This document shows, in pieces, positions 19,951 through 60,785 of a DNA stretch of 64,000 nt. The DNA is from Eledone cirrhosa (lineage: Eukaryota), in assembly GCA_964016885.1 (NCBI GenBank), contig OZ024740.1:302188001-302252000 (forward strand), in the 5' to 3' direction. The notes under the pieces were generated by a model. That model made no database searches. It had not been told where the DNA came from and saw nothing but the letters and a program-made list of their open reading frames with translations. Within the stretch, counting starts at the first letter, position 1; each line of letters opens with the position of its first letter. A program made the position numbers and the translations under genes.

Positions 19951-20110
19951 CGACACAGACGAACTGGGCCTCCTACTTAGACTTACCTACGACACTAACT
20001 ACCTAGACAGCCATGACCTTAGACGTTTCTGCCCTAGTAGACCCATAAGAGGTAGACCCCCCCACCATACCCTCAATGGCTAAAAAGACTCCCATGGAAA
20101 GGTAGATTGG

Positions 20111-21440
20111 GTGGACCAAAGCTATACGGACCCCCAAAACAATGATCAGGTAAGACAAATGGTCGCACATGCAATAGGGGCTAATATCAAAACTACCCTA
20201 AAGGGCCACATATTCAAGTTCAACGAGAATATCTACATCCAAAATGAGGGAGCAGCCATTGGCACCAGCATAGCTGGTGATGTTGCCAACCTTTTTATGG
20301 TATGGTGGGAGAGGAGACTTAAAGATCTCCTTAATGAGAGCTCCATAGACCTCATCATGTACTCTCGTTACGTAGACGATATCAATATAGTTATAAGAAC
20401 ATCCCCACTAGAGAGCACTAACAAGTTTGATTTAGAACGTAGCACAATGGAAAGCATCCAGCAGATAGCTAATTCCATACACCAGAGTATAACTGCAACT
20501 GTCGACTACCCTTCCAAACACCCTAACAATAGACTACCTGTATTAGACACGGAACTCTGGATTAACACTATAGACGAGAGAGCCCAAATTCTCCACTCAC
20601 ACTATGCTAAACCCATGGCCTCCAAATACCTGATACTCAAAAACTCAGCAATGTCCAGTAGTGTTGAGGTTAATATTCTGATCGCAGATTTGGTACGAGT
20701 GATGAAGAATGTGTCCCGCATGTGCGACCCAACAGAAATGGAAAGACACATCCAACACTTTATCAACCGCATGCAGTTCTCTGGCTACAACCAAAGAGAC
20801 AGCGTCAGAGTATACGAAGGAGCCATGGAGAAGTATAAGACCCTCATAGAACTGGACATGAAAGGAATTTTCCCATTATACAGGAGCAAATCATGGAATA
20901 GCTTAGATAGGGCTAGACATAAGATAGGGAAAGCCACCTCATGGTACGACAACTAGAGATACCAGAGTGTCATGTTTGTGGACGCTACCCCTGGAGGGAA
21001 ATTAGCTAACCAGTGTAGAAAGGCCCTGAGAAAGACCCACTTAAAGATTAAGGTGGTAGAAAAGCCAGGAACCACCATAAAATCCTTGATCAGCAAAACC
21101 TACCCTTTTAAGAAAACCCACTGTACTAATAGGAAATGTATCTTATGTAAGGTAAACCCCCGGATAAACTGTAAAACTAGAAACGTAGTCTATAGCATAA
21201 GATGTACAGAGGGTACTTGCAGAAACATGACAACAACATACATAGCCGAGACAGCTCGTAGCATAGGTGAAAGGATAGACCAACACTGGGGGGAACTAAA
21301 AGGACGAACATGCCAGATAACAACACGACGGTAACATAGACAACATAGAAATTAGAATAATATGTAAACATAGAAATGACCCAGCAGATAGGCAAATCAG
21401 AGAGGCCAGTGAAATAGAACTTAGAAGGCCAAGGCTAAAC
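20111..21440 (+). pseudogene. PLE reverse transcriptase plus GIY-YIG endonuclease (stop at about 20954, frameshift at about 21290)
   Basis: YIQNEGAAIG..., YSRYVDDI, LPVLDT; then C..C..C and NVVYSIRC...TYIAETARSIGERIDQH (GIY-YIG). Confidence 0.9.
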
Positions 21441-24736: not shown

Positions 24737-27700
24737 ATGGCCAATATAAGAGTTGGATGGTGAATGTACGCGGCCTAGTGATGCCCTGGAAACAGGGCAA
24801 ACTCTTAAACGACCTCAGGTTGCACAGTATGGATGCTGTAGCCATTTGCGAGTCCAGGGTCCACAGCGAGCGACAGCTGGCTCCCATCTTCGATGACTTT
24901 GAGATCTACGCATCTCTCTGTTACCCGGTGGGTGGGGTTGCCGTTTTGCTGCGAAAACACCTGGGCCTCGTGACACAGAGGGTACATCTGGACCCGGAGG
25001 GTCGACTGGTGGTCCTAGACGTTGACGGTATTGAAGGTGGGGCCTTCAGGCTGGTGGCCGCATATGCCCCATCCGGGACACCGTGGCCAGACTTCTTCAA
25101 ACGTCTAGAGACTTTTCTGTGAACGTCCCGCCTCTTGCTCTTAGTGGGGGACTGGAATGGAATCCTAGATACACGTTGGGACTATGTGGATGCATGTCCC
25201 AATAAAGCGGGGTGTAACAGCCTCAAACAGTTAATCGGTCGATTTTACCTGGCCGATAGATATCGACTAGATTTTCCGACTGTGCCACTGTGGACGTGGA
25301 CATATCGTAGTGGAATATCTAGATCGTACCTAGATAGGGTTCTAGTTAGAAATAAGTATGGGGACATGTTAAGCTGTCCACAAATGTTCATGGTTGCCTA
25401 TTCAGATCAGCCTAGTGACCTGCATGGTCAACCTTGATAGAACCCATAGACACGGACCCGGCTACTGGAAGCTGAACTTGTCGTTACCGACATGCAAAGC
25501 CTACAGTAGACGGATTAGCACTTTAGTTAAGCAGCACTTAACGGGGGCCATTGTCAACAACAGATGGTGGTACTCTCTCAAGAGGGCAGTTAGATTAGAC
25601 TCGATAGGATTTAGTAAAGAATTAGTGTTAGATAGAAATAGGACCGATAAGGAACTGGTAGATAAAGTAGAAGAGGAAATTAGAACTGGCAACGTAGCCA
25701 GCGTACTAGCAACAAGAACAGCCTTGGACCAGTTCTTCGACGCAAAGCTCGAGGGCTGCGTTGTCAGAAGCAAAATACGTGCTCTGGGAGACGAGGGAGC
25801 CAAAGCTGTTAGCTGGGCCCGAGAGACAGAGGCAAAAAGTGGCAAAAAGTTCACGATTCGGTCTTTGAAGGACCTAGACGGACGTGTGATACGTGATCCG
25901 AAGCAGATATTGCGGCCTTTCAGCAGAACTTTGCTCAACTGTTCGGGCAGGGCGGCGCGCTGGGATGGGCTATGGTTTTCGGTCCATACCTCGACGGCCT
26001 ATCCCGACTCTCGGACAGCGAGGCGTAGGTCTGCGAAAAGCCGATTTCAGCCGCTGAGATAGGGGACGCACTGAGCCAATGCGGCAAACGCAAATCTCCA
26101 GGTCCCGACGATCTACCCTACGAATTTTACGTAGCAATGCCGGACTTAATCTCCGATCTCCTGGAAGCGGTCTACTGCAACTGGCAGCAGAACGGGAGAA
26201 TTCCCAGTTCTGTGACTGGAGAGTACTCACACTAGTCAGGAAGGACGAGAATAGGGGGGATGACATAGGCAACTTCCGGCCCATAACTCTGCTAAACACA
26301 GGGATACAGATTTTGGCCAAGGTGTTGGCAAAGAGGCTGGAGCTTGTCGTCGAGAACCTGGTGGGAGAAGCGCGGACATGCACAATCCCGACCAGGTCCA
26401 TACAGGACAACCACCATCTCATGCTATACATCATAGTGAGGGTAGCGTGTAAATCCAGCTTCGGTGTGTCCCTGATCAACTTGGATCAGTCTAAGGCTTT
26501 CGATAGGGTTGACCATCGTTACCTGGATGCGGTGCTCGATGCGGCAGGCTTCGGCCCCGTGTTCAGGGGCTGGATTGCTGCAATGCACAACAGCAACCTC
26601 TGCTCAAGGGTCAAGGTGAACGGCTACCTCTCGGAGCCGTTCCATATCACGCGATCCATTCGACAAGGATGTCCTCTCTCCTACCTTCTGTACGTACTGA
26701 CTCTCGAGCCACTACTGCGGAAGGTGGAGTTATTGCAGGGCATCCCTCTGGAACTGGGACTGCGGAAAGCGGCGTCGGCCTACGCCGTTGACGTGACAGT
26801 ACTGGTGTCGGGCGCCTCGCAAGTCGAGGAAGTCGGCACCTTACTGAAGGAATACGAAAGGTTCACAGGAGCGAAGCTGAACCGGGACAAGTCCATCGGT
26901 TTGCAACTCGGATCGTGGAGAGGCAAAATATGCCTTCCGATGGCGTCGTCGAACGCTGGACGGTAAAGCTGCTCGGGGTCTGATTTGATCCGGACCTCCA
27001 GGTGGAGAAGAACTGCAACGAGGTGACGGCCAAGGTGTTTGCGCTCACCCAGAAGTGGGGCGAGTGCAAACTATCCTTGAAAGGTCGAGTGGAGGTGGCG
27101 ACACTTTTATAGCGTCCGCCATCTACTACCGCTTGACCGCTGTGCCTTGTCCAGCCAAAATGCTCACCAAAATAAGCGCGCGCTCTTCCAATTCCTTTGG
27201 AGGAGGCGGGCTTCTTTGGTGAGAAGATCCATCTACTACCAACACCCTTCCAACGGAGGGCTGGGGTTGCCGTGGCTGACGATGCGCAAACACGCGCTCA
27301 GGCTACGGCATCTCTACGTATTCCTCACCGGACAACCGGTGTGGGCCCCGTTCGTGAGGCGAGCCTTCCTTACGAGCTGCAGTCCTGGATCAAGCAAAGA
27401 CCGAGGAAAATGGACGACTGGTACATCCAATGTGCTCAGGCGCTATGGCAGGCGGACCCGGCGATCAGTGAAGACTCCACTTCGTCATTCTTTAGAGGGT
27501 TGATCCACAGCAAGTGCGACGACATGCTTGGTGAAATTCTAGGCGTAGAGGAAGACGAACTGCCCAGTCTGTTCGGTAGGACCTTCCGCCCGGGACCGAT
27601 GGACAACTTCCAAAGTCCCTGGCCTGGCAGTGCTACCGAGGAGCTCTACCAGTTCGAGACAAGCTCTACAGACATGGGCGCCCGGGCAGGGACCCTTCGA

Positions 27701-28130
27701 AAAAGATCTGTCCGAGGAGCGTGCGAGACGAAGAAACCGTCGCGCACGCATTAATACACTGCCCAGGCGTTACCGACCTGTGGGGCTATGTAGAATGACT
27801 ATTGTCGCGGGTGGGACCAATCCGGTTGACCTCCGAGTCCATTGTAATGATCTAACCACCACCCTCCTTCAAAAACGAAGGAGAGGCGGTTTTCCTTTGT
27901 GTGATAGCTATGGAGAAAGAGGTTGTATGGTGGACAAGGTTGAAAGGGCTGAGGTCAGACACCTTTCTCTCCGGCCAACAACTGATTCTTTATTTTCAAA
28001 TACCACTTTAGAAGAAGAATCAGGATGGAGAGAGAGGTGCTGTACCCCAGCAAGTTTTATGAAAGGTGGGTGAAAGTGGCGAGAATGGTCCGAGTGAATG
28101 AGCCTTCTCTCTATATAATCCTGTAGGCTG
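24737..28130 (+). pseudogene. Tx1 ORF2: APE endonuclease plus RT (multiple stops and frameshifts)
   Basis: VNVRGL, LVAAYAP, GDWN, SYLDRV, PGYWKLN, NFRPITLLNT, LDQSKAFDRVDH, SIRQGCPLS, AYAVDV, GGLGLP. Confidence 0.93.
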
Positions 28131-30891: not shown

Positions 30892-31449
<558 letters not shown>

Positions 31450-40228: not shown

Positions 40229-40328
40229 GGAACACATGATGAAGGTTAAAGAACACTTGTGAATAGTGCAGTTTTAAATCAACAATATATATATATATAT
40301 ATATAGTGCTAGAACACTGGAAGGTAAT

Positions 40329-40474
40329 ATCCGTAGTGGTAGAGCGCTCAGTCCATGGGACGAGTTAGGTGAAACGCTAAGGTGAAATAATTGTTCTCGG
40401 TATGGTGAACTAACTGCTGTGTAACCTCTTCTACCTAACTCGTCCCATGAACTGAGCGCTCTACCACTATGGAT
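40329..40474. repeat. 42-bp inverted repeat with 62-nt spacer, (TA)n-flanked
   Basis: 40329-40370 versus 40433-40474: one mismatch and one G.U pair. Confidence 0.9.
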
Positions 40475-40481
40475 GGTACTC

Positions 40482-40528
<47 letters not shown>

Positions 40529-40532
<4 letters not shown>

Positions 40533-40720
40533 AAAAAGTTTAAACCCGACGGCAGAGCTCAAGCCGTTTCGACGGCTTTTTCTGGACTGATATAGCCGTC
40601 GAAACGGCTTGAGCTCTGCCGTCGGGGTTAAACTTTTTCCTATTACCCTCTCTAGTACCCTAAGTATTGAGTACTCTGGTAAGTTATGGGCGATCTGGTT
40701 CCTTACCACACCTCCTTCGT
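40529..40720 (+). mobile_element. fold-back terminal-repeat fragment carrying an HHR 3' half; family of 15516-15978
   Basis: Arms 40529-40577 and 40594-40642; GAA-ACGGC-ttgagctct-GCCGT-C-GGGG; 40643-40720 is the reverse complement of 15516-15600. Confidence 0.7.
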
Positions 40721-40908
40721 TATATATATATATATATATAAAAGAAAATTTCTCTCTACATGGCTGAATACAATATATATAATCTGAATCTTTTCGAATA
40801 TTAATAATAACATTCGATGCGTTTGCAATTTTGCAAACAAGCCTCAATTTTATTGCCATGTCAGTAGAATGAACACTTCATTCTTGCTCTTGTGTTGGCA
40901 CACGAACA

Positions 40909-40958
40909 GAACTGCAGACACTAATGTTTCTGGGTATCACCCTTCATCAGTACAGCTC
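40909..40958 (-). ncRNA. type I HHR (inverted unit), intact
   Basis: Exact reverse complement of 41199-41248. Confidence 0.82.
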
Positions 40959-41198
40959 ACAGTTCATGTGCCAAACTCTCAGAGCTAGTGAAAATGTATG
41001 CTATTTTCAAAAATACACAGTGAAACTGACTGGCCAGTCTGCTGATATGCAAATCTGGCTGATCAGTGGATCGGCTAATATGCAGATCTGACTGATCAGC
41101 TAGTATGCTAATATGCAAATCAGGTCAAATCAGTCACTGTGTATTTTTGAAAATAGCATATATTTTCACTAGCAATGACAGTTTGGAAGGTAAACAGT

Positions 41199-41248
41199 GA
41201 GCTGTACTGATGAAGGGTGATACCCAGAAACATTAGTGTCTGCAGTTC
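41199..41248 (+). ncRNA. type I HHR, intact; predicted cleavage after C41240
   Basis: GAGCTGTA-CTGATGA-A-GGGT-gat-ACCC-A-GAAA-CA-ttag-TG-TC-TGCAGTTC. Confidence 0.85.
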
Positions 41249-41622
41249 TGCTAGTATGCCTACACAAGAGCAAGAATGAAGTGTTCATTCTACTGACATG
41301 GTTATAAGATTGTGGCTTGTTTGCAAAATTGCAAACAAATCGAATGTTATTATTAATATTCGAAAAACTGATTACATTTATTGTATTCAGCCATGTAGAG
41401 CGAAATTTTCTTTTTTATTTGAATTTGGCAAAGCAGGCCATTTATCGCTCGTATACTGGCCAGTCTGCTGATATGCAAATCTGGCTGATCAGTGGATCGG
41501 CTAATATGTAGTTCTGACTGATCAGCCAGTCTGCTAATGTGCAAATCAGGCAGACCAGTCACTGTGTATTTTTGAAAATAGCATATATTTTCACTAGCTC
41601 TGACAGTTGGCATGTGAACAGG

Positions 41623-41673
41623 GAGCTGTACTGATGAAGAGTGATACCCAGAAACATTGGGTGCCTGCAGTTC
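41623..41673 (+). ncRNA. type I HHR, probably inactivated
   Basis: Same motif, but with a stem II mismatch (GAGT/ACCC) and triplet GCC instead of GUC. Confidence 0.7.
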
Positions 41674-41819
41674 TGATCGCATGCCAACATAAGAGCAAGA
41701 ATTAAGTGTTCATTCTACTGACATGGCTATAAAATTGAGGCTTGTTTACAAAATTGCAAAGGAATCGAATGTTATTATCAATATTCGAAAAAACTCAGAT
41801 TACATTATATATATATATA

Positions 41820-42710
41820 TTTCTCCTCTTCTCACTTCACCCCGTTCGCAACGAAGTCATTTTCTTTCTCACTCACATTTGAATTCGCTGCTGAAAGGTC
41901 TATTTTCTAAGCGCTCATATATTCACCTAGCTTATGCTAACAGAATAACTATGAAGCTTGTTCCCTTCCTTCTACGGTTAGCTATCCTCTTTGTTGTTAT
42001 CTCGTCTCACTCGCTTTACGCGTTTTAATTGTCCTAATAACTTAATTTAGTTATTATTGCACCGACGTGAGGTATATGATTTTTAATGCAATGAAATATC
42101 TATGATCGTCGGCAAATCACTGATGAGGGACTTATATTATTTTATTACATGTTATCCATGTGCAACCAGCAGTATTCTTCTCCCCATTTTTTCACGTATA
42201 TTTACCTATACTGCGCTTCTGTTTTTTTTCTCTCTCTCTCTCTCTTACTGCTCCCTCTGTTTCTCCTACTTTCTTTCGCCCCCTCTGTCATGTCCGTTAA
42301 CTCTTCCTCACACTTCCACTCACTCACTCACTGTTTCTCCTATTCTCACTTCACCCCGTTCGCAACGAAGTCATTTTCTTTCTCACTCACATTTGAATTC
42401 GCTGCTGAAAGGTCTATTTTCTAAGCGCTCATATATTCACCTAGCTTATGCTAACAGAATAACTATGAAGCTTGTTCCCTTCCTTCTACGGTTAGCTATC
42501 CTCGTTGTTGTTATCTCGTCTCACTCGCTTTACACGTTTTAATTGTCCTAATAACTTAATTTAGTTATTATTGCACCGACGTGAGGTATATGATTTTTAA
42601 TGCAATGAAATATCTATGATCGTCGGCAAATCACTGATGAGGGACTTATATTATTTTATTACATGTTATCCATGTGCAACCAGCAGTATTCTTCTCCCCA
42701 TTTTTTCACG
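41820..42710. repeat. direct repeats of about 380 bp with 514-bp period (LTR-like), (TA)n-flanked
   Basis: 41820-42200 is nearly identical to 42335-42710, with a unique spacer of about 135 bp. Confidence 0.92.
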
Positions 42711-45464: not shown

Positions 45465-48400
45465 GAGTCTGAACGGGCGTCTTTTTGCTCGCTCTCGTAA
45501 GTTACCTGTCAAAACTTATTTATTGAATTTTTTGTTGTTGTGTAAGGCATACAAAGCCCTTGGACTTTGCCCTGTGAAGTGGAAGGAATAATATTTGGGC
45601 CTTTTGGCCCAAATATTTGAACACTTTTACATTTTAAAAAATTATCGAAAAAAAAAAGAAAACATGACTGAGCCACGCCCCCAGCGATATGTATGCTGTC
45701 GTGTGATACAACAAACACCACCACAATCAACGTGAACAAAAACAGCAATGATATCAACACTGAGAACTCTAAATTTGAAAAAAATGACAGTAACAGGGAC
45801 AATGAAAATACAGATAACAGACAAAATGACAAATGCAACAGCAATATCAACACCACTAACATGAAAACAAATATCGACAACACCAACAGCAACAATACCT
45901 ACTGCACCGAGAACAAAGGCGGCACCAAAGACAACAATGATAACAGCAACAGTGATAACAACAACACCACCAAGAACAACGACAACAACAACAACACCCC
46001 CAACGAATACAAGAAGAACACTTTCGCTGCGGCAGCAGCCAAAAAGAGGCTATGCTTCAACATGGACCTCTCAAACGAAGATGAAAAGTTGTCCCTGGCC
46101 TGGAAGATCATCAAGCAAGAGCAAACATGGGCCAACTTAACTGTCCCGGTAGAAGCTATTGAGGCAGTGGAGCGCAGAACGGTGCAATATAGATGCATCT
46201 CAGCACAAACCAAAAGGGCAGCTTTAATTCCACAAACAGATGTCGAAGTCGCGCTGAGGTGCATCAGAGATGACACCGAATACATAGCGAGGAACAGACA
46301 GTACGGCACCATTTCAGTGCTGTTCAAGTCAGAAGCCCTCGCTATGAAACACGCTATGACTCCTTGCAAAACCAGCAAGGTCATAATGTACCCCTCCCAC
46401 ATGGGAAAAAGAACGGCCCGTCTCCGCATTCACAGAATCCCACCAGAACAAGACATGCGGTGGCTTCTGGGATGTGTAATTGTGGAGGGACGGATACCTT
46501 CCCGATAGAAGTGTCAAGAACGGCCAGAGAGGACTGGTCCGGGGTTGATCTGGAGATACTTCTCCAGATCAGGCCGGAGAATGTGAAGACAATCCCGGAC
46601 CACATCCGCCTTCAGAATGGGACGGTCATTCATATTATGAGCTAGGGCAAAAGGTCTCATTGTTTTGTTTGTGGGTAATAAACACATATGCGAGCCTTCT
46701 GCCCTCAACTGCTGAAAGATGCAAGGGGTCGAAGGGCTCCACTGCTGCCGACGCCGGGGCGAGGACCATGACCAGAACCAGCACCAGCAAAACTACCAAC
46801 AACAACACCAATAGAAAGACCACCACCAACATTGACCACCCAGGGGGAAGACGAGGAAAGTTGTCAAATTCCCCCTCCCCCCAAAAATACACACATCAAT
46901 AAAAACCTAAACACACAGACAGACACACTTACAGACACAGACGCCTCATCTACCAGTAGTGAAGATGAGGGAAAACCAAAATCCCCCAAAATACAATAAT
47001 GGAAACACAAAAAGAAAAAAAACTCAACAAATCACAAAATCACCCACAATAAAAAATACAGACACCACCTACGCAAACATCTCTCCAATAACACCAACAT
47101 CAACACCACAATCACCATCACCAGAATCCCCCAAACGCAAACAACCTAAACAGACGCAAGAACAAATACACACACAAACATCTGAAACCACAGCACCGCA
47201 CTCACAACAAACACAGACACAACCGAAACGGCACCATCAAAACCATCACCACCACAGCAACGCAAACAAATAAAATCACACCAACAAAACATACAATACT
47301 TCGTGCTCGTCAGAAGGGCCAACAAGGAATTGATGGCCCTCGTAGCACGAAGTGAAAATATACAAAAAGACGGGGACATTTTTAAATCGAGCACACTTTG
47401 CGTGCCGGAAGATTTGTTTCTGGTGCGAATGTCGCTCGATTTATTCAAAGAGATACGAGACAGCTTTCCTCGGGACGTGGGAACCCCGAACGTAAAACCC
47501 ACTTCAAGACTTTTAAAGGGGTTCCCAAAAGAAACCCCGCCAACTATGGAGGTCGAACCACGCGACCTTCACAAGAGCCCGGAAGGTAAGTAAACCTTTC
47601 CTCTCTCTCTGTCCCTAGAAATGGATCTAATTGCCGTCATTTTCGACGACTATCAGATCTTTGCATCTGTTAGTCGGCCGGGAATGGGAGTTGGGGTGGC
47701 AGTGTTGTTTAGGAAAGGCCTGGATCTCGAGGTAAGGTCAATCTTCCGGAACCCGGACGGGAAGCTGGTGGTCCTGGACGTGAACAATAACGAAGGTGGT
47801 GCCTTTAGACTGGTGGCCGTCTACGCCCCTACAGGGTCAGGGCGGCTGGACTTCTTTAGACGCCTGGAACCCTTTCTGGCTACGTCTCGCCCTTTACTGT
47901 TAGCGGGGGACTGGAACGGCATCTTTGACGCACGCTGGGACTGTGTGGCAGTATCAGATAGGAGCCTGGGGGGCAAAAGCCTCAAGAATCTGATCAGCCA
48001 GTTTCAACTGTCTGACAGGTACCGACTAGATTTCCTTAATGCGCCAGTGTGGGCCTGGACTAACCGCATAGGGTCATATAGATCGTATATAGACATGATA
48101 TTCATTAGGAAAATAGACAGAAATAGTGTAAGCTGTCCACGTTTTAAAACGGTCGCCTATTCAGTTCACAAATGTGTGATCTGTATGATCAACCTAGATA
48201 AGACACGTAGATTAGGACCTGGTTACTCGAAGCTGAACATGTCATTGCCGGCAAGTAAGGCTTACAGGGAACAGGTCAACAATTTAGTTAAGAAAAAGTT
48301 GACAGAGGGAGTCGTCAACAATAGATGGTGTGGGGCTCTCAAAAGAGAGATTAGGGTAATGTCGATAGAGTTTAGCAAAGAAGTAGCGTTAGAGAAAAAT

Positions 48401-51143
48401 AGAAAGGAGGGTGAGTTGGTAGATAAGTTAGACGAGGTTATTTGTAGTAGCATTGCAACTAACGTGCTAGCGGCGAGAATGGCATTAGACGATTTCTTCA
48501 ATGCGAAACACGAAGGTTGCTAAGGCGCGTGCTCTGAGAAACGAGGAAACCAAAGCTGTTCAATGGGCCGCGTGGCAGAGGCGCAGCTTGGTAATAAAAC
48601 CACGATTCGGTCTTTGACGGACCGAGATGGACACGAGCTGAGCGATTCCAAGCGGATCTGTGAGGCCTTTCGCCAACATTTTGCTAGGTTGTTCGGGGGA
48701 GGTTAGGTTCAGAGGCGGTGGCGAACTTCAGTATCTACCTCGATGGCTTGCCGCAACTCTCGACGGCCGACGGTGAGCGCTGTGAAAGGCCGATTACTTC
48801 AGCCGAGATTCAGAATGCCCCTGTTAGCTGCATGAGGCGCAAGTCACCCGGTTTTGATGGTCTGCCCTACGAGCTTTACGTAAATATGCCAGAATTGTTC
48901 TCTAATCTCCTCGAAGTGCTCTACTGCAACTGGCAACAGAACGGGAGCATTCCCAGTTCTGTGATCCGGGGCGTAGTGACGCTGATGAGGAAACACGAGA
49001 ACAAGAGGGACACATTAGACAATTTCAGGCCCATAACTCTGTTCAACACAGAGTTTAAGATTTTGGCCAGGGTGTTAGCGAAGAGGTTGGTGCTTGTCTT
49101 CGGGGATTTGGTTGGGGAGGCGCAAACTTGCTCCATCCCAACCAGGTCCATATACAACAACCTCCACCTGATGCGATACATCATAGAGAAGGTAGGGTGT
49201 AAATCTGGCTTCGGTGGGGCTCTGATCAATTTAGATCAATCGAAAGCATTCGATAGGGTCGAACATCGGTACCTGGAAGCTGTCCTCAAGGCGGCTGACT
49301 TCGGCGCCGTCTTCAGAAGATGGATAGCTGCAATGCACAGCGGCACCTGCTCGGTGGTCAACATGAATGGCCACCTCTCGGAACCATTTCAAGTCTCCCG
49401 ATCGGTCCGTCAAGGTTGCTCTCTCTCCTCCCTTCTGTACGTATTGACTCTCGAGACTTCACTGCGGAAACTGGAGCTGTGGCAGGGCATCCCACTCGAA
49501 CCGGGACGCGGAAAAGCTGTGTCGGCTTATACGGAAGACATTACCGTGATGGTGTCGGACACCTCAGAAATCTAGGTGGTCGGCAACTTATTGGAGGAAT
49601 ATGAAAGGTTGACGAGAGCAAAACTTTACCCGGAAAAGTCGGTGGGCTTGCAACTCGGCTCCTGGAGAGGCACGTCCATGCTGTCCAATAACGTCGTTAG
49701 GCGCTGGACGGGCGGACCCGTAAAGCTGCTCAAGGTTTGGTTCGGGCCAGACCTTCAGATGGATAAGAATTAGGACGAGGTGACGGGAAGGGTAGCCATT
49801 CTCACCCAGAAATGGGCTGCTAGAAAGCTATCACTGAAAGGTCGAGCGGAGGTGGCGAACGCGTACATCGCGTCCGTCATCTACTACCGTCTGACCGTCG
49901 TCTCTTGCCTCCGTTCGCGCCTCGCCATCTTGGAGCGGCTCCTCTTCAAATTCTTGTGGAGGGGTCAGGTTCCGCTGGTGAGGCGGTCCATCTGCTGCCA
50001 GCACCCTCTACGTGGAGGGCTCGGCATACCGTGGCTAATGACGCGCAAACTCGCGCTGAGGCTGTGGTATCTCCAGATATTCGGCCTAAATAGGTGAACA
50101 GGTGTAGCGCCGTTTGTCAGACGGGCCTTTCCGCAGCGCGTTTCTTTGACTGTGCTGCAGTCCTCGGTCAAGAAGAGATCGAGACTGGGTGACTGGCACC
50201 TGGAATGTTGCCAGGCACTCACTGCCCTCTACCAGGCGGGTAATGCGGTCAGTGGAACTTCCACTCCTGAGTTCTATAGAAGATTAGTGGTGGGCAAGTG
50301 CAACGACGCACTCGGAGAGGCTCTGGGAGTCGACGAAGTCGAACTAACCAGTCTGTACGGGGGATCTTCGAGCCGGGGACGATGGATAATTTCCAAAAAT
50401 CCCTCGCTTGGCAGTGCTACTGGGGGGCACTGCCGGTTCAAGATAAACTCTACAAGCACGGAAGTGCTGTCAGACGGACCTGCCCGAGATGTGCGCAGAG
50501 CGACGAAACCGTTCTGCACGCACTCGTCCAGTGTCCGTGCATTACTGACTTGTGGAGTTATGTCGAACAATTGTTGTCGCGTGTAGAACGGATCCGGCTA
50601 TCGGCCGAGTCCATAGTGAAGATCGACCCGCCGCCTTCTTTTGGCCAGGAAGGGCAGGAAATTGTTTCACTGTCTGGTGGAAGTAGCGAAAGAGGTTATA
50701 TGGTGGACGAGGTTGAAAGGGCTGAAGACAGACACTTTTCTCTTCTGCCAATCCCTCATCAACTTTTTCAAGTTTCACTTGGACAGGAATGTGAGGGTGG
50801 AGAGAGAAGTACTGCCCCCCAGTACATTTCCTGATAGGGGGGTGAATGTGGCGAGAATGGCGCGTGTGAGTTGGCCTACTCTGGTCATGCGCCTGTGGGT
50901 TGGTAAATTTGAGGAGGAGAGGGGTGCCCTTCCAGGGTGTTCTCGAAGCGTCGGGTCGTTCAGGGTTGGTGGGGTACCTGAGCGAACGCTGGAGGTCATT
51001 CCCCCCATTTTTCTTGTTGTATTTTTATTGGTACTTCGTTATTGTTATTCATATTGTTTACTCGATTTTTCTGTAAAACCCCACTGTCCCAGTCCTTTGT
51101 ATTGTCCTCTATATGTCGGCCCTTGTGGCCAATAAATGAAATC
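45464..51143 (+). mobile_element. near-full-length disrupted Tx1/L1-clade LINE, copy 2 (diverged subfamily)
   Basis: Asn/Thr-rich ORF1 (45693-47593); ORF2 (47621-50900) with LVAVYAP, GDWN, KSPGFDGLPYE, NFRPITLFNT, LDQSKAFDRVEH, SVRQGC and CPRC..ETVLHAL..C; AATAAA; long (ATT)n at the 5' flank and short ATTATTAT at the 3' flank. Confidence 0.93.
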
Positions 51144-56489: not shown

Positions 56490-57830
56490 ACACCGGAAAC
56501 TTCCACATCAACAGTTCCCATAGACCGCCTCTACTTGAAACGTAAGTAGGGAGGTCGAGGCCTAACATCGGTCCAGACAGCATTTGAGTGTCGCATCATA
56601 TTCCTCCGATAACATTTACGAACCTCCAAGCGTAAGAGCCAAACGATTGAGCAAACTGTCTGCATGAAACATGTAAGATTATGAAAGTTAGGAAGGAACT
56701 ACTTGAAAGAATCTCCCTGCAGGATAATCAAAAACCCACACCCAGGGAAATTGACCAGCAATACCGCAGCGAATTCATGGTTGAAAAACTGCATGCTTAT
56801 CAGCAAAAAATCATGCATGGATATATTGAGAGGAAGCTCCAGAGTCAGAATAATATAGATAAGCAAAGTAGTCTATCTTGGAAAAACAACCGCTTTATTA
56901 ACTCCCACTTTGAAGGATATGCTTTTGCAATCCAAGAACAGGAAATCAACACAAAATACACGATTCACAAAAGAGATAGGGATGCAGGCAAAACACCTAG
57001 ATGTGAGAAAAAATGTATACTCTGCAGAATTAACGTCGAAGATATCACCCATGTCATAAGCAACTGTCCAAAGATGTCATCACGGTACTATCTACGTATG
57101 AGGCATGATGTAGTTGCCAAAACACTGTACAATGCAATCCGTATAAAATATAGTCCCGACAATAAACAGCAAAGTGGAAAACATACACATACATAATATG
57201 AAAGTGTACTGTTGGAATATTCCAGTAAAAACTACAATAAAATGCAGGCGTAATAGACCGGATATAATGATATGTGACAGGGAAAAGAAGGCATGCACAG
57301 TAGTGGAAGTTAGCCACCCAGCAGATGCTAATATATTATTAAAGATTAGCGAAAATGAGAATATCTATGCAGAGCTAATGAGAAATCTGCAGATACTCCA
57401 ACTTTACTATACTTTCAGATTTATACCTATAATTATTGGCGCAATTGAAGTGGGTTGTGTCAGCCTTAGTACAATTCTTGAAAAGCTGGGCTTTACAGAA
57501 CCAGAAAGAACACAACTAGTTAGAAAATTACAAGTACACTCCAATAATGGAACAGTAAAAATATGTAAAACATTCCAAACATTCTGCATCTAATAACTCC
57601 ATGTACACATGTACAGATACCATGCACATACACATGCACACATATAGCGCAAAACATACACCTCCACACATATAAAAACATCCATGCAGACATTCATACA
57701 AATCTACCTCGTTGATGTTGTGTAAATTCCGATGAGAGAGTATTGTATCTATGTTAGACACCGGCTCTCTGACTATTAGCAAAAAAATTGTGAAATTATA
57801 AAACCAGAATAATCATACAAACTTACATAA
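56490..57830 (+). mobile_element. 5'-truncated R4/Dong-like element, copy A (CCHC plus restriction-like endonuclease, 3' UTR)
   Basis: FAIQEQEI, CILC...HVISNC, RHDVVAK, RPDIM, PIIIGA; (CATA)n tail. Confidence 0.9.
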
Positions 57831-57971
57831 GACATACATGCATACATGCATGCATACATACATACATACATACATGCATACATACATACATACATACATA
57901 CATACATACATACATACATACATACATACATACATACATACATACATACATACATACATACATACATACAT

Positions 57972-60785
57972 AGAGAGCTGTTAGCGAAAAACGCTGATAC
58001 CTGAAGAAGGTTGATGAGAGAAACATGCTTCATAAAAGATTCAGACGAAACCAAACATCAGTCTATAGAGATATAAAGGGCAAAATAATAAGTGTCGCTG
58101 AGGCCCCATCCCAGAAAGACATAGATTCCTTTTGGAGCAAAATATGGGGTGAAAAGAAGATTTTCAACCAAGATGCAGTGTGGCTAACAGAAATCCGAAA
58201 GAACTATTGCTCCTACACTACAACAAAAACATACGAAATAAGTGAGGGTACCCTTGAGACTGTGATAGAAAAACACCAGGAAGAGACACGATTGTCGGCT
58301 ACTGGTACAAACAAACTGATATTCTATCGGAGGTATCTTATTGACCTCTACCAACAAGTTCTTAAGGGAGATACACTTATACCAGAATGGTTGACATTAA
58401 CACAAACATTACTGGTCCCCAAGAACAAAGACACCGACTTGGCAAAAAACTACCAACCCATTGCATGCCAGAACCTGATGTATAAGATGTATACAGCCTG
58501 CCTGAAGCTATTCCTCCAAGATCACTGTGAAAATAATAACATCACAGATAAACATGCAGCTGGAAAGAAAAGGGTTTGGGGATGTGCTGAACAACTCCTA
58601 TTCAACAAAACTGCGATGCCGGAAGTGTGACAACTCAGGAGGTATATGACTACAGCCTGGCTGGACTACAGGAAAGCTTTTGATTCTGTTCCCCACTCTT
58701 GGATGATAGAGGTCGTCCAACTTGCTAAAGTCCCAGGCATTACTGTCAGAGCCATAGAGAGGCTGTCTTCTTCTTGGGCTACTATCCTAAGCTTAAAGAC
58801 AGAGAGGGAGGAATCTATTTTCACTGATAAAATAAAATATCGCTGGGATATATTTCAGGGGGACAGTCTCTCTGTGATATTATTCATCTTGCCATTAAAC
58901 CCCTTGTCCTTTCTGCTCGTGAAATGTGAGGGATACATCATTGGCTCACAGGAGGACAGAAATACAAACCTAACCCATAATTTCTTTGTGGACGATCTGA
59001 AACTCTATGCCAAGAACATGGATGGGATGAAGACAAATCTTGACCTGGTTACAACGTTCTCAAAGGATATAGGAATGGAGTTTGGCCAAGATAAATGTTC
59101 ATACATTACTGTAAAGCGGGGAAAAACAACAACCCTATCTAGCAACATTGTCATCAATGGTCTAACTGTTTCACCGATATCTGATGAGAGCTGCTACAGA
59201 TACCTGGGGATAGATGAGAACATATCCTATAATGGTATCTGTAATAAAGAACGGGTAACCAAGGAATACTACACCCGATTAAGAAAGATCTGGTCATCGG
59301 AACTCTCTACGCAAAATAAAATAGTGGCTCACAATGTGTTTGCTGTGCCTGTCCTAATACCAAAGTTTCGAATACTCAATTGGACGATAGACGAAATCCG
59401 AGCAGTTGATGTTGGAACTCGAAAAATACTGAACAACACCGGAAACTTCCACATCAACAGTGACATAGACCGCCTTTACTTGAAACGTAAGCAGGGGGGC
59501 AGAGGCCTAACATCAGTCCAGACAACATTTGAATGTCGCATCATATCTCTCCGACAACATCTGCGAACCTCGAAGCAAAGGAGCCCGTTTCTCGAGCAAG
59601 TCTATCTGCATGAAACAGATAAGGTCATGAGAGTTGGGAAGGAACTCCTCGATAGATATTCCCTGTGTGATAATCAAAACCTCACACCCAGGGATGTCGC
59701 TCAGCAGTATCGCAGTGAATCCATGGATGAAAAACTGCATGCCTATCAGCAAAAAATCATGCATGGGTATGTTGCCAGGAAGCTCCAGAGTGAGAGTAAT
59801 ATAGAAAAGGAAAGTAGTCTATCTTGGACCAACAACCGCTATATTGGCACCCACTTTGAAGGATACGACTTTGCAATCCAAGAACAGGAGATTAGCACGA
59901 AATACCTGATTCACAAAAGAGATAGGGATGCAGGCAAACACCTAGATGTGATAACAAGTGCAGACTCTGCAGAACTAACAATGAGGATATCACCCATGTC
60001 ATCAACAGCTGTCCAGAGATGTCATCGCGGTACTATCTACCTATGAGGCATGATGTAGTGGCCAAAACACTGTACAATGCAGTTCGTAAAAAAGGTAACC
60101 CCGATAATAAACACATTAAAAGCTAAAGCAATATGGAAGACATACATGTACATAATATGAAAGAGTACTGGTAGAATGTTCCAGTAAAAACCCCAATAAA
60201 ATGCAGGCATAACAGACCAGATATTATATGAGACAGGGAGAAGAAAGCATGCACAGTAGTGGAAATTAGCTGCCCAGCAGATGCCAATATAATATCAAAG
60301 ATTAGTGAAAATAAGAACATTTATGCAGAACTGATGAGAAATCTGCAGATACTCCACCCTGATTACACCTTCAGATTTATGCCGGTGATTATTGGGGTAC
60401 TGGGGTATGTTAGTAACTGCCTCAATACAAATCTTGAGAAGCTAGGCTTCACAGGAACGGAAAGAACACAACTAGTTAAGAAATTACAAGTACAATCCAT
60501 TAATGGAACAGTAAAAATATGTAAGACATTCCAAAAATGTTGCATCTAGTAACTGCATATACACATATACAGATGCAAAGCATATACACATGCACACATA
60601 CAACTCAAAACATCCACATCCACACCTACAATAATATCCATATCTACACATGCATGCATACATACATGTCTACCTAGTTGATGTTGTGTAAATTCCAATG
60701 AGAGAGTCTTGTGTCTATGTTAGAAATCGACTATCTCTCTATTCGTAAAACTTTGTAAAATTATAAAACCAGAATAACATACATA
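57972..60785 (+). mobile_element. 5'-truncated R4/Dong-like element, copy B (RT plus restriction-like endonuclease, disrupted)
   Basis: KNYQPIAC, WLDYRKAFDSVPH, IFQGDSLS, FFVDDLKLYA, YRYLGI, GGRGL, PVIIGVLG; starts right after the (CATA)n tail of copy A and ends in CATA repeats. Confidence 0.93.

Follow-up and report, generated by a model that had tools for sequence, protein, structure and literature searches.

A hammerhead-bearing repeat family in Eledone cirrhosa with a match to the host snRNA promoter and Penelope-like insertion signatures

We analysed a 64,000-nucleotide (nt) stretch of the 3.0 Gb Eledone cirrhosa genome (C1:302188001-302252000; hereafter the window), which contains a repeat unit with hammerhead ribozymes (HHRs), arranged as an inverted lead arm followed by a longer sense arm. 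The best model for this locus, to which we give a probability of roughly 0.68, is a self-promoted, ribozyme-processed element mobilised by Penelope-like elements (PLEs). Judged from sequence comparisons, the unit RNA is likely to be transcribed by RNA polymerase II (Pol II) and self-cut to unit length, and is probably circular, while its reinsertion is likely to depend on Neptune-type Penelope-like proteins that join a reverse transcriptase (RT) to an endonuclease. At the sequence level the unit qualifies as a retrozyme without long terminal repeats (non-LTR retrozyme). An initial annotation, made from the window alone, had proposed a retrozyme family; the match to a small nuclear RNA (snRNA) promoter and the fusions to Neptune-type elements go beyond it.

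The exact 39-nt hammerhead motif matched the genome 912 times, against 0 matches for its reversed control, an excess well past chance. Relaxing four positions gave 1,289 matches, and a stem II region one base longer gave 427 (the first 100 of them listed), mostly of a second subfamily. DNA searches returned 2,824 and 4,858 first-look candidates, 40 being scored in each, and we estimate several thousand copies in total. We mapped 120 locus records, which formed 105 clusters (102 after removing three segmental duplicates), and in addition 30 long loci and 19 subfamily-2 loci. The family period was 437 nt, as in the exact motif pairs at C1:75742624/75743061 and C1:256250055/256250492; monomer coordinates (m) are those of a natural dimer, L055, with m1 the first base 3' of the cut and m437 the C17. 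The preceding unit's own 3' part was found upstream of each unit, which makes the repeat a closed permutation of 437 nt. The longest arm measured 1,083 nt and held three intact ribozymes (L194). Among the 30 long loci (those mapped of the 40 scored, out of 4,858 candidates) we found no satellite-like array, and the longest run had 2.5 units; longer ones could sit among the unscored candidates or be collapsed in the assembly. The annotated retrozyme family therefore stands as open reading frame (ORF)-less, hammerhead-bearing and tandem-capable, with thousands of candidates, but as dispersed 0.2-2.5-mers instead of long arrays. Two or three strictly intact motifs on one strand were present at 9/30 long loci, and at six (L194, L195, L199, L203, L204, L207) a promoter match preceded two strictly intact ribozymes. 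Second-round arms reaching upstream of the predicted transcription start were common among the long loci. Contigs from three sequencing runs of unknown kind (one sample) gave high repeat depth on a dimer and were uninformative on expression or circles.

We built a promoter profile from eight distinct U1/U2 upstream types of the host genome, holding out U5 and U6. TCAGT lay at -56 to -58 in all eight, with a TATAT box near -30. On the unit this profile had a single strong match, at m325 (16.3 bits), a score reached by 0/300 shuffles and 0/127,456 window positions. Held-out U5 upstream sequences scored best at -55/-56 in 7/7 cases (3.0-14.5 bits), compared with 0/5 for U6. Across U1, U2 and U5 of this genome, TCAGT thus occupies -55 to -58. 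Median scores of unit copies were 12.0 bits (n = 65) and 12.65 bits (n = 16). The window copy, at 41127, scored 14.7 bits and was the best in the window, where 2/127,456 positions reached at least 12 and none at least 15; the inverted arm scored -8.1. By this match, a proximal element of the Pol II snRNA type, at the host spacing, is part of each unit; it predicts a start at 41185-41188, where stem I has its base, about 54 nt before the cut site. Three octamer-like repeats lie upstream of the proximal element (Table 1), and host U6 genes have an ATGC(A/T)AAT octamer in three types. The U6 octamer is unusually close to the start (-76 to -78; snRNA loci L152-L191, L222-L241, L263-L277), and a TTACCTCCCTT-like motif near -260 is common to U1/U2 and one U6. 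Transcription by Pol III was considered and is unlikely: read-through would be halted by T-runs in promoter and tail, the T-run of the tail is missing from the second subfamily, and U6 genes do not have the matched element. A literature search, which left most subscription papers outside its reach, found no invertebrate retrozyme with an snRNA promoter or proximal sequence element, and the octopus hammerhead literature yielded nothing on this family by title or abstract start. This family, or one related to it, may already be present in the supplementary figures of PMC7229834 and in the PMC13282606 repeat library.

The annotation had likened the inverted-plus-tandem arrangement to PLE insertion, and this was borne out by the mapped copies. 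Copy ends were variable, PLE-like rather than LTR-like. The 3' ends clustered at m136-150 and m163-189, and 131/151 adjoined TA (TATA or ATAT within 22 nt). Two outward-facing arms, head to head, were present in 64/102 clusters, and none was tail to tail. PLE insertions carry a 30-40 nt tail at one end (PMC8557442, PMC3846280), linked to two internal RT start sites, and the PLE protein, a predicted dimer, cuts and extends both strands (PMC11167929). Here, a 35-nt tail was found at exactly one end in 44 of the 51 classifiable two-ended sites (about 50% expected; P = 5 × 10−8); two others had no tail and five had two, and a further 13 two-armed clusters were unclassifiable. The window locus obeys the one-tail rule. 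Polymorphic alleles were shared between the two arms of one insertion at a higher rate than between randomly paired arms (0.70 vs 0.57 ± 0.02; 0/2,000 shuffles; 56 records, a few overlapping), which fits a common template, a common time of origin or later conversion. At four two-armed insertions (L247, L253, L261, L262) the arms apparently came from both subfamilies, which suggests that a single event drew on two distinct RNAs.

Among 150 locus records, three cases had a 5'-truncated coding PLE directly joined to a unit arm. The unit stood head to head with a Neptune-type family A at L052/L061 and with a Neptune-type family B at L134/L242; at L029/L243 the unit arm was followed by about 55 unassigned bases and then family B. 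At the first two junctions the PLE 3' part faced outward and terminated in TA tracts, with no remainder of the unit beyond the PLE. We called elements Neptune-type, without a tree, by a GIY-YIG motif at the C-terminus with a CX4CX2C linker ahead of it (as defined in PMC8557442); the GIY-YIG Pfam match of family A was below the cut-off. Families A and B each had their own, different ribozyme motif and 3' end, and neither 3' end showed any similarity to the unit. Fusions with such unrelated PLE ends point to mobilisation in trans. Family A itself had at least 1,442 candidates and a minimal hammerhead in its 3' end (L063-L091), and further hammerhead variants of other families occurred among the same loci. 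The window also holds a broken third PLE family (20084-21334) with an RT bearing YVDD, a CX4CX2C linker and a GIY-YIG-like end.

We compared 125 distinct HHR domains, chosen independently of the motif. Their core was 97% conserved, and 65 were strictly intact. An A.A at 10.1/11.1 replaced the usual G10.1-C11.1 pair (119 and 122 of 125 domains, about 95%), and the minimum-energy fold of the monomer paired the core with loop III. Within subfamily 1 there was no covariation in the stems, whose two variable sites we ascribe to CpG decay. Between the subfamilies (39 and 11 sequences), three outer stem I pairs differed yet stayed paired; in one of them both sides had changed, G-C becoming A-U. Stem II GGGU/ACCC was common to both, and loop II (GAU to AAUC) changed together with the stem I bulge (UGAG to UAUA or UAAA). 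The self-complementary loop III CAUUAGUG was computed to be unfolded as a short motif alone and to form a self-duplex at -10.2 kcal/mol; palindromic self-pairing of this loop is expected of hammerheads that act as dimers (PMC4209133). Circular monomers folded with z-scores of -7.8 and -6.6 against 40 shuffles (-6.6 for the window unit), and internal subrepeats added to this stability. Copy 5' ends fell at the cut site (m436-m3) in 10 cases against 2.2 expected (P = 1 × 10−4), and neighbouring windows inside the palindromic stem were also high. We take this enrichment as moderate evidence for ribozyme-cut templates.

In the life cycle that we propose, the source genes would be loci with a promoter, HHR, unit and second HHR. 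Transcription would begin about 54 nt ahead of the first cut site, the two ribozymes would release a 437-nt RNA, probably aided by pairing between self-complementary loops III, and a host ligase would circularise it. A PLE protein would then nick both strands of a (TA)n tract and prime two cDNAs, each from its own internal start site, the two sites being separated by about 35 nt; microhomology would then join the cDNAs head to head. More than one round of the circle, or a jump between cut monomers, would rebuild the upstream promoter and create new source loci. In the boldest version, an invertebrate retrozyme would have captured the host Pol II snRNA promoter independently, as newt satellite 2 did, and two or more unrelated Neptune families, without any sequence in common with it, would copy its 437-nt ribozyme-cut circle in trans; a dimeric PLE protein would prime the two target strands at the two RNA start sites, and rolling would regenerate the promoter. 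This version is tentative, and we put it at somewhat less than even odds.

Several observations weigh against a self-promoted, ribozyme-processed element. Cleavage may be weak because of the A.A mismatch and the predicted core-hiding monomer fold, and 8/9 Xenopus dimers were uncut in vitro (bioRxiv 10.64898/2026.07.22.740005). The cut-site excess fell to 6 vs 2.2 (P = 0.026) once joins at the CTGCAG palindrome were removed. Near the predicted start, copy 5' ends were only marginally enriched (9 vs 4.7, P = 0.05, post hoc), and several lay 3-8 nt upstream of it. The best score of a 3' box profile was not above shuffles (77/300). With copies about 88-94% identical, the family may be mostly inactive. 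Head-to-head junctions are not exclusive to PLEs, since the unit is joined in this way to an RTE fragment at L039; at L055 an RTE fragment lies between the arms (the LINE/RTE labels, LINE being long interspersed nuclear element, are readings of translated motifs). Finally, HHR cleavage was not needed for insertion of an anole PLE in vitro (PMC11167929).

The anole result would also suit the same PLE-mobilised, snRNA-promoter element without a circle, with a weak or vestigial ribozyme and with copies that the PLE RT makes from linear read-through RNAs by jumping between templates. The fixed A.A mismatch and core-sequestering fold agree with such an element, as do the many arms that pass uncut through intact HHRs and the template switches visible at L029 and L055. 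However, the stems were kept across the two subfamilies despite the loop changes, 5' ends were enriched at the cut site, and just 3/29 other long loci extended upstream past the query, so that few source loci have the length needed to serve as templates for the many 1.5-1.9-mers. We consider an element without a circle unlikely, although it is the main rival to our model.

The annotation had recognised that its reading would fail if the unit were merely the terminal repeat of a coding PLE. As a pseudo-LTR (pLTR) or 3' remnant of such an element, the unit would have as its copies the 5'-truncated products of that element; its architecture is exactly that of PLE termini (PMC8557442, PMC3846280), Xenopus retrozymes were derived from pLTRs (bioRxiv 10.64898/2026.07.22.740005), and rare coding copies could escape searches in which 40 candidates each were scored. 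Yet in the 150 locus records no PLE ORF ran in sense directly into the unit 5' end, and no ORF with RT and GIY-YIG was flanked by the unit (a search that was not exhaustive). Upstream of each unit was instead the 3' part of the previous one, the two Neptune families had different HHRs and 3' ends dissimilar to the unit, and the unit has its own promoter match. This origin of the present copies is very improbable, though earlier descent of the unit from a lost pLTR is possible. A foldback or miniature inverted-repeat (MITE-type) DNA transposon with terminal inverted repeats at TA would account for the outward-facing inverted termini within TA tracts, but arm lengths vary freely, the 35-nt tail difference recurs in 44/51 sites, many copies are one-armed and partial tandems are common, leaving it next to no probability.

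The window locus has the layout of a source gene but a degenerate second ribozyme. A scan of the window found type I hammerhead motifs at 41207 (+ strand, H17 41240), 40950 (- strand, H17 40917) and 10271 (+ strand, H17 10304). The second of these confirms the annotated inverted lead unit with an intact HHR on the opposite strand (arm alignment 233 nt at 92% identity, about 285 nt counting gaps), and the third the dispersed monomer, now placed at 10091-10444. The annotated tandem spacing of 425 nt between sites 41240 and 41665 was recovered, but it departs from the family period owing to a short deletion near 41455, and the sense arm amounts to about 1.8 rather than two full units. The second site was GCC, as annotated; HHR2 also had a stem II G-to-A change breaking one pair and an extra G in loop III, and its region was predicted to fold into an alternative hairpin. 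The locus thus lacks two intact same-strand motifs, and the view that it would not itself release a monomer is reasonable, HHR2 being degenerate. The proposed hairpin of about 280 bp would require read-through from outside, because the inverted arm, itself devoid of a promoter match, stands upstream of the locus's own predicted start. The lack of coding capacity was upheld: the sole ORF of at least 120 amino acids touching the locus (40467-40877, - strand) had no Pfam match. The ribozyme call is based on motif and stem analysis, since Rfam gave 0 matches at the gathering score; ARAGORN gave 0 genes.

Table 1. Features of the window locus and of the dispersed copy (positions in the window).
Feature	Position	Strand	Basis
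Dispersed single-HHR copy (HHR 10271-10304); 5' end joined to a short interspersed nuclear element (SINE) piece, terminates in (TA)n	10091..10444	+	
(TA)n target tract, left	40722..40740	.	sequence
Inverted 5'-truncated arm (~m333-437 + m1-180), terminating in the 35-nt tail; without promoter match	40738..41023	-	
Type I hammerhead in the inverted arm, core intact (GUC; H17 40917)	40917..40950	-	
Sense arm: promoter, HHR1, one 425-nt unit, HHR2, short 3' end	41024..41810	+	
Three 33-nt subrepeats, octamer-like ATGCAAAT / ATGCAGAT / ATGCAAAT at 41047, 41080, 41113	41047..41120	+	
Match to host U1/U2/U5 proximal promoter element (TCAGT at 41130 + TATAT box)	41127..41163	+	
HHR1 domain: bulged extended stem I, CUGAUGA at 41207, cut after 41240	41183..41262	+	
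HHR1 detail: A.A mismatch below stem II GGGU/ACCC; self-complementary loop III CAUUAGUG	41183..41262	+	
Cut-to-cut unit, 425 nt here, 437 nt in family	41241..41665	+	
ATTATTAAT site, unoccupied here; SINE insertion hotspot in other copies	41349..41358	+	
Tail segment between two family 3'-end positions (putative RT start sites; PMC11167929)	41385..41418	+	
Second, weaker promoter match (9.0 bits; octamers mutated)	41552..41588	+	
Degenerate HHR2 (GCC; stem II and loop III changes)	41632..41665	+	
(TA)n target tract, right	41806..41820	.	sequence

Non-LTR retrozymes are known in coral, mussel and axolotl (PMC7229834). Their units span about 150-450 nt, or up to about 970 nt in bioRxiv 10.64898/2026.07.22.740005, and long tandem arrays are common without being obligatory, as 75% of the families in that preprint have at most 7 tandem units. 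Like those described in these two sources, the unit is a non-coding repeat of a few hundred nt with less than 50% GC and a type I HHR per unit, a short palindromic helix III and a highly paired predicted circle, found as monomers and dimers in a genome where PLEs co-exist. A helix II base mismatch also occurs in axolotl HHR_Amex2, as U.U (PMC7229834) where this unit has A.A. Unlike them, the longest array found here had 2.5 units, the unit has an internal snRNA-type promoter match, and it is known here from genome sequence alone. We traced its mobiliser through the insertion signature and fusions, whereas the preprint did so for its retrozymes through pLTR homology. Newt satellite 2 (Coats et al. 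1994, cited in PMC2220036) is likewise an HHR repeat and is reportedly driven by a Pol II promoter of snRNA type within the repeat; the promoter here is a sequence match to the host U1/U2/U5 motif. In contrast to the newt satellite arrays, the present family consists of dispersed PLE-type insertions in an invertebrate-type genome, and its promoter capture was likely independent.

The partial tandems, inverted 5'-truncated copy and HHR resemble the termini of Neptune, Penelope/Poseidon and Naiad (PMC8557442, PMC3846280, PMC11167929, PMC4209133), and a 30-40 nt tail at one end and microsatellite targets are shared with endonuclease-bearing PLEs. Unlike PLE termini, the unit has no ORF, its HHR is extended with a long bulged stem I where that of PLEs is described as minimal, and it shares no sequence with the two Neptune families fused to it. 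Non-autonomous Chlamys elements such as MRC1 (PMC8557442) offer a parallel in their head-to-tail copies and in pLTR formation by PLE derivatives; they share 3' sequence with an autonomous partner, whereas none was found for the unit, which has an HHR and promoter match.

The genomic evidence from this family addresses two questions about animal retrozymes, namely the inserting enzyme and the driver of strong transcription. PLEs were a strong candidate for the inserter (PMC7229834), supported by pLTR homology (bioRxiv 10.64898/2026.07.22.740005); the family adds the PLE tail signature and direct fusions to named partners and, on transcription, a promoter match with a predicted start. The one-tail-per-insertion rule bears on how the PLE protein uses its two RT start sites, which showed no strand difference in the in vitro results of PMC11167929. 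If true, a promoter-captured circular retrozyme copied in trans would provide a complete life cycle for animal retrozymes.

Other repeats surround the unit. Short palindromic or repeated elements are nested in TA tracts near the locus (window 40306-40480, 40531-40645, 40646-40720 and 30892-31290) and recur beside unit copies L019, L023, L028, L041 and L050; they may represent the termini of further PLE or retrozyme families. A direct duplication with a period of about 500 nt starts just right of the locus (window 41820-41990 and 42340-42600). Broken LINE-type ORFs with RVT_1, AP endonuclease and zf-RVT matches lie at window 25373-28073, 47594-50834 and 56651-60046. A tRNA-like SINE of about 190 nt is abundant, with 20 matches in the window, and has an insertion hotspot in the unit (the equivalent of 41349-41358), where 643 exact junction motifs compare with 1,584 empty sites. 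We take a (TAA)n-targeting LINE such as Dong/R4 to be a candidate driver of this hotspot. A mobile chimera of the SINE and the unit 3' end was mostly rejected: 30 loci were SINEs inside the unit with independent truncations, and L012/L022, L094 and L098 were ambiguous. The insertions at the hotspot (L092-L121) also showed independent duplications.
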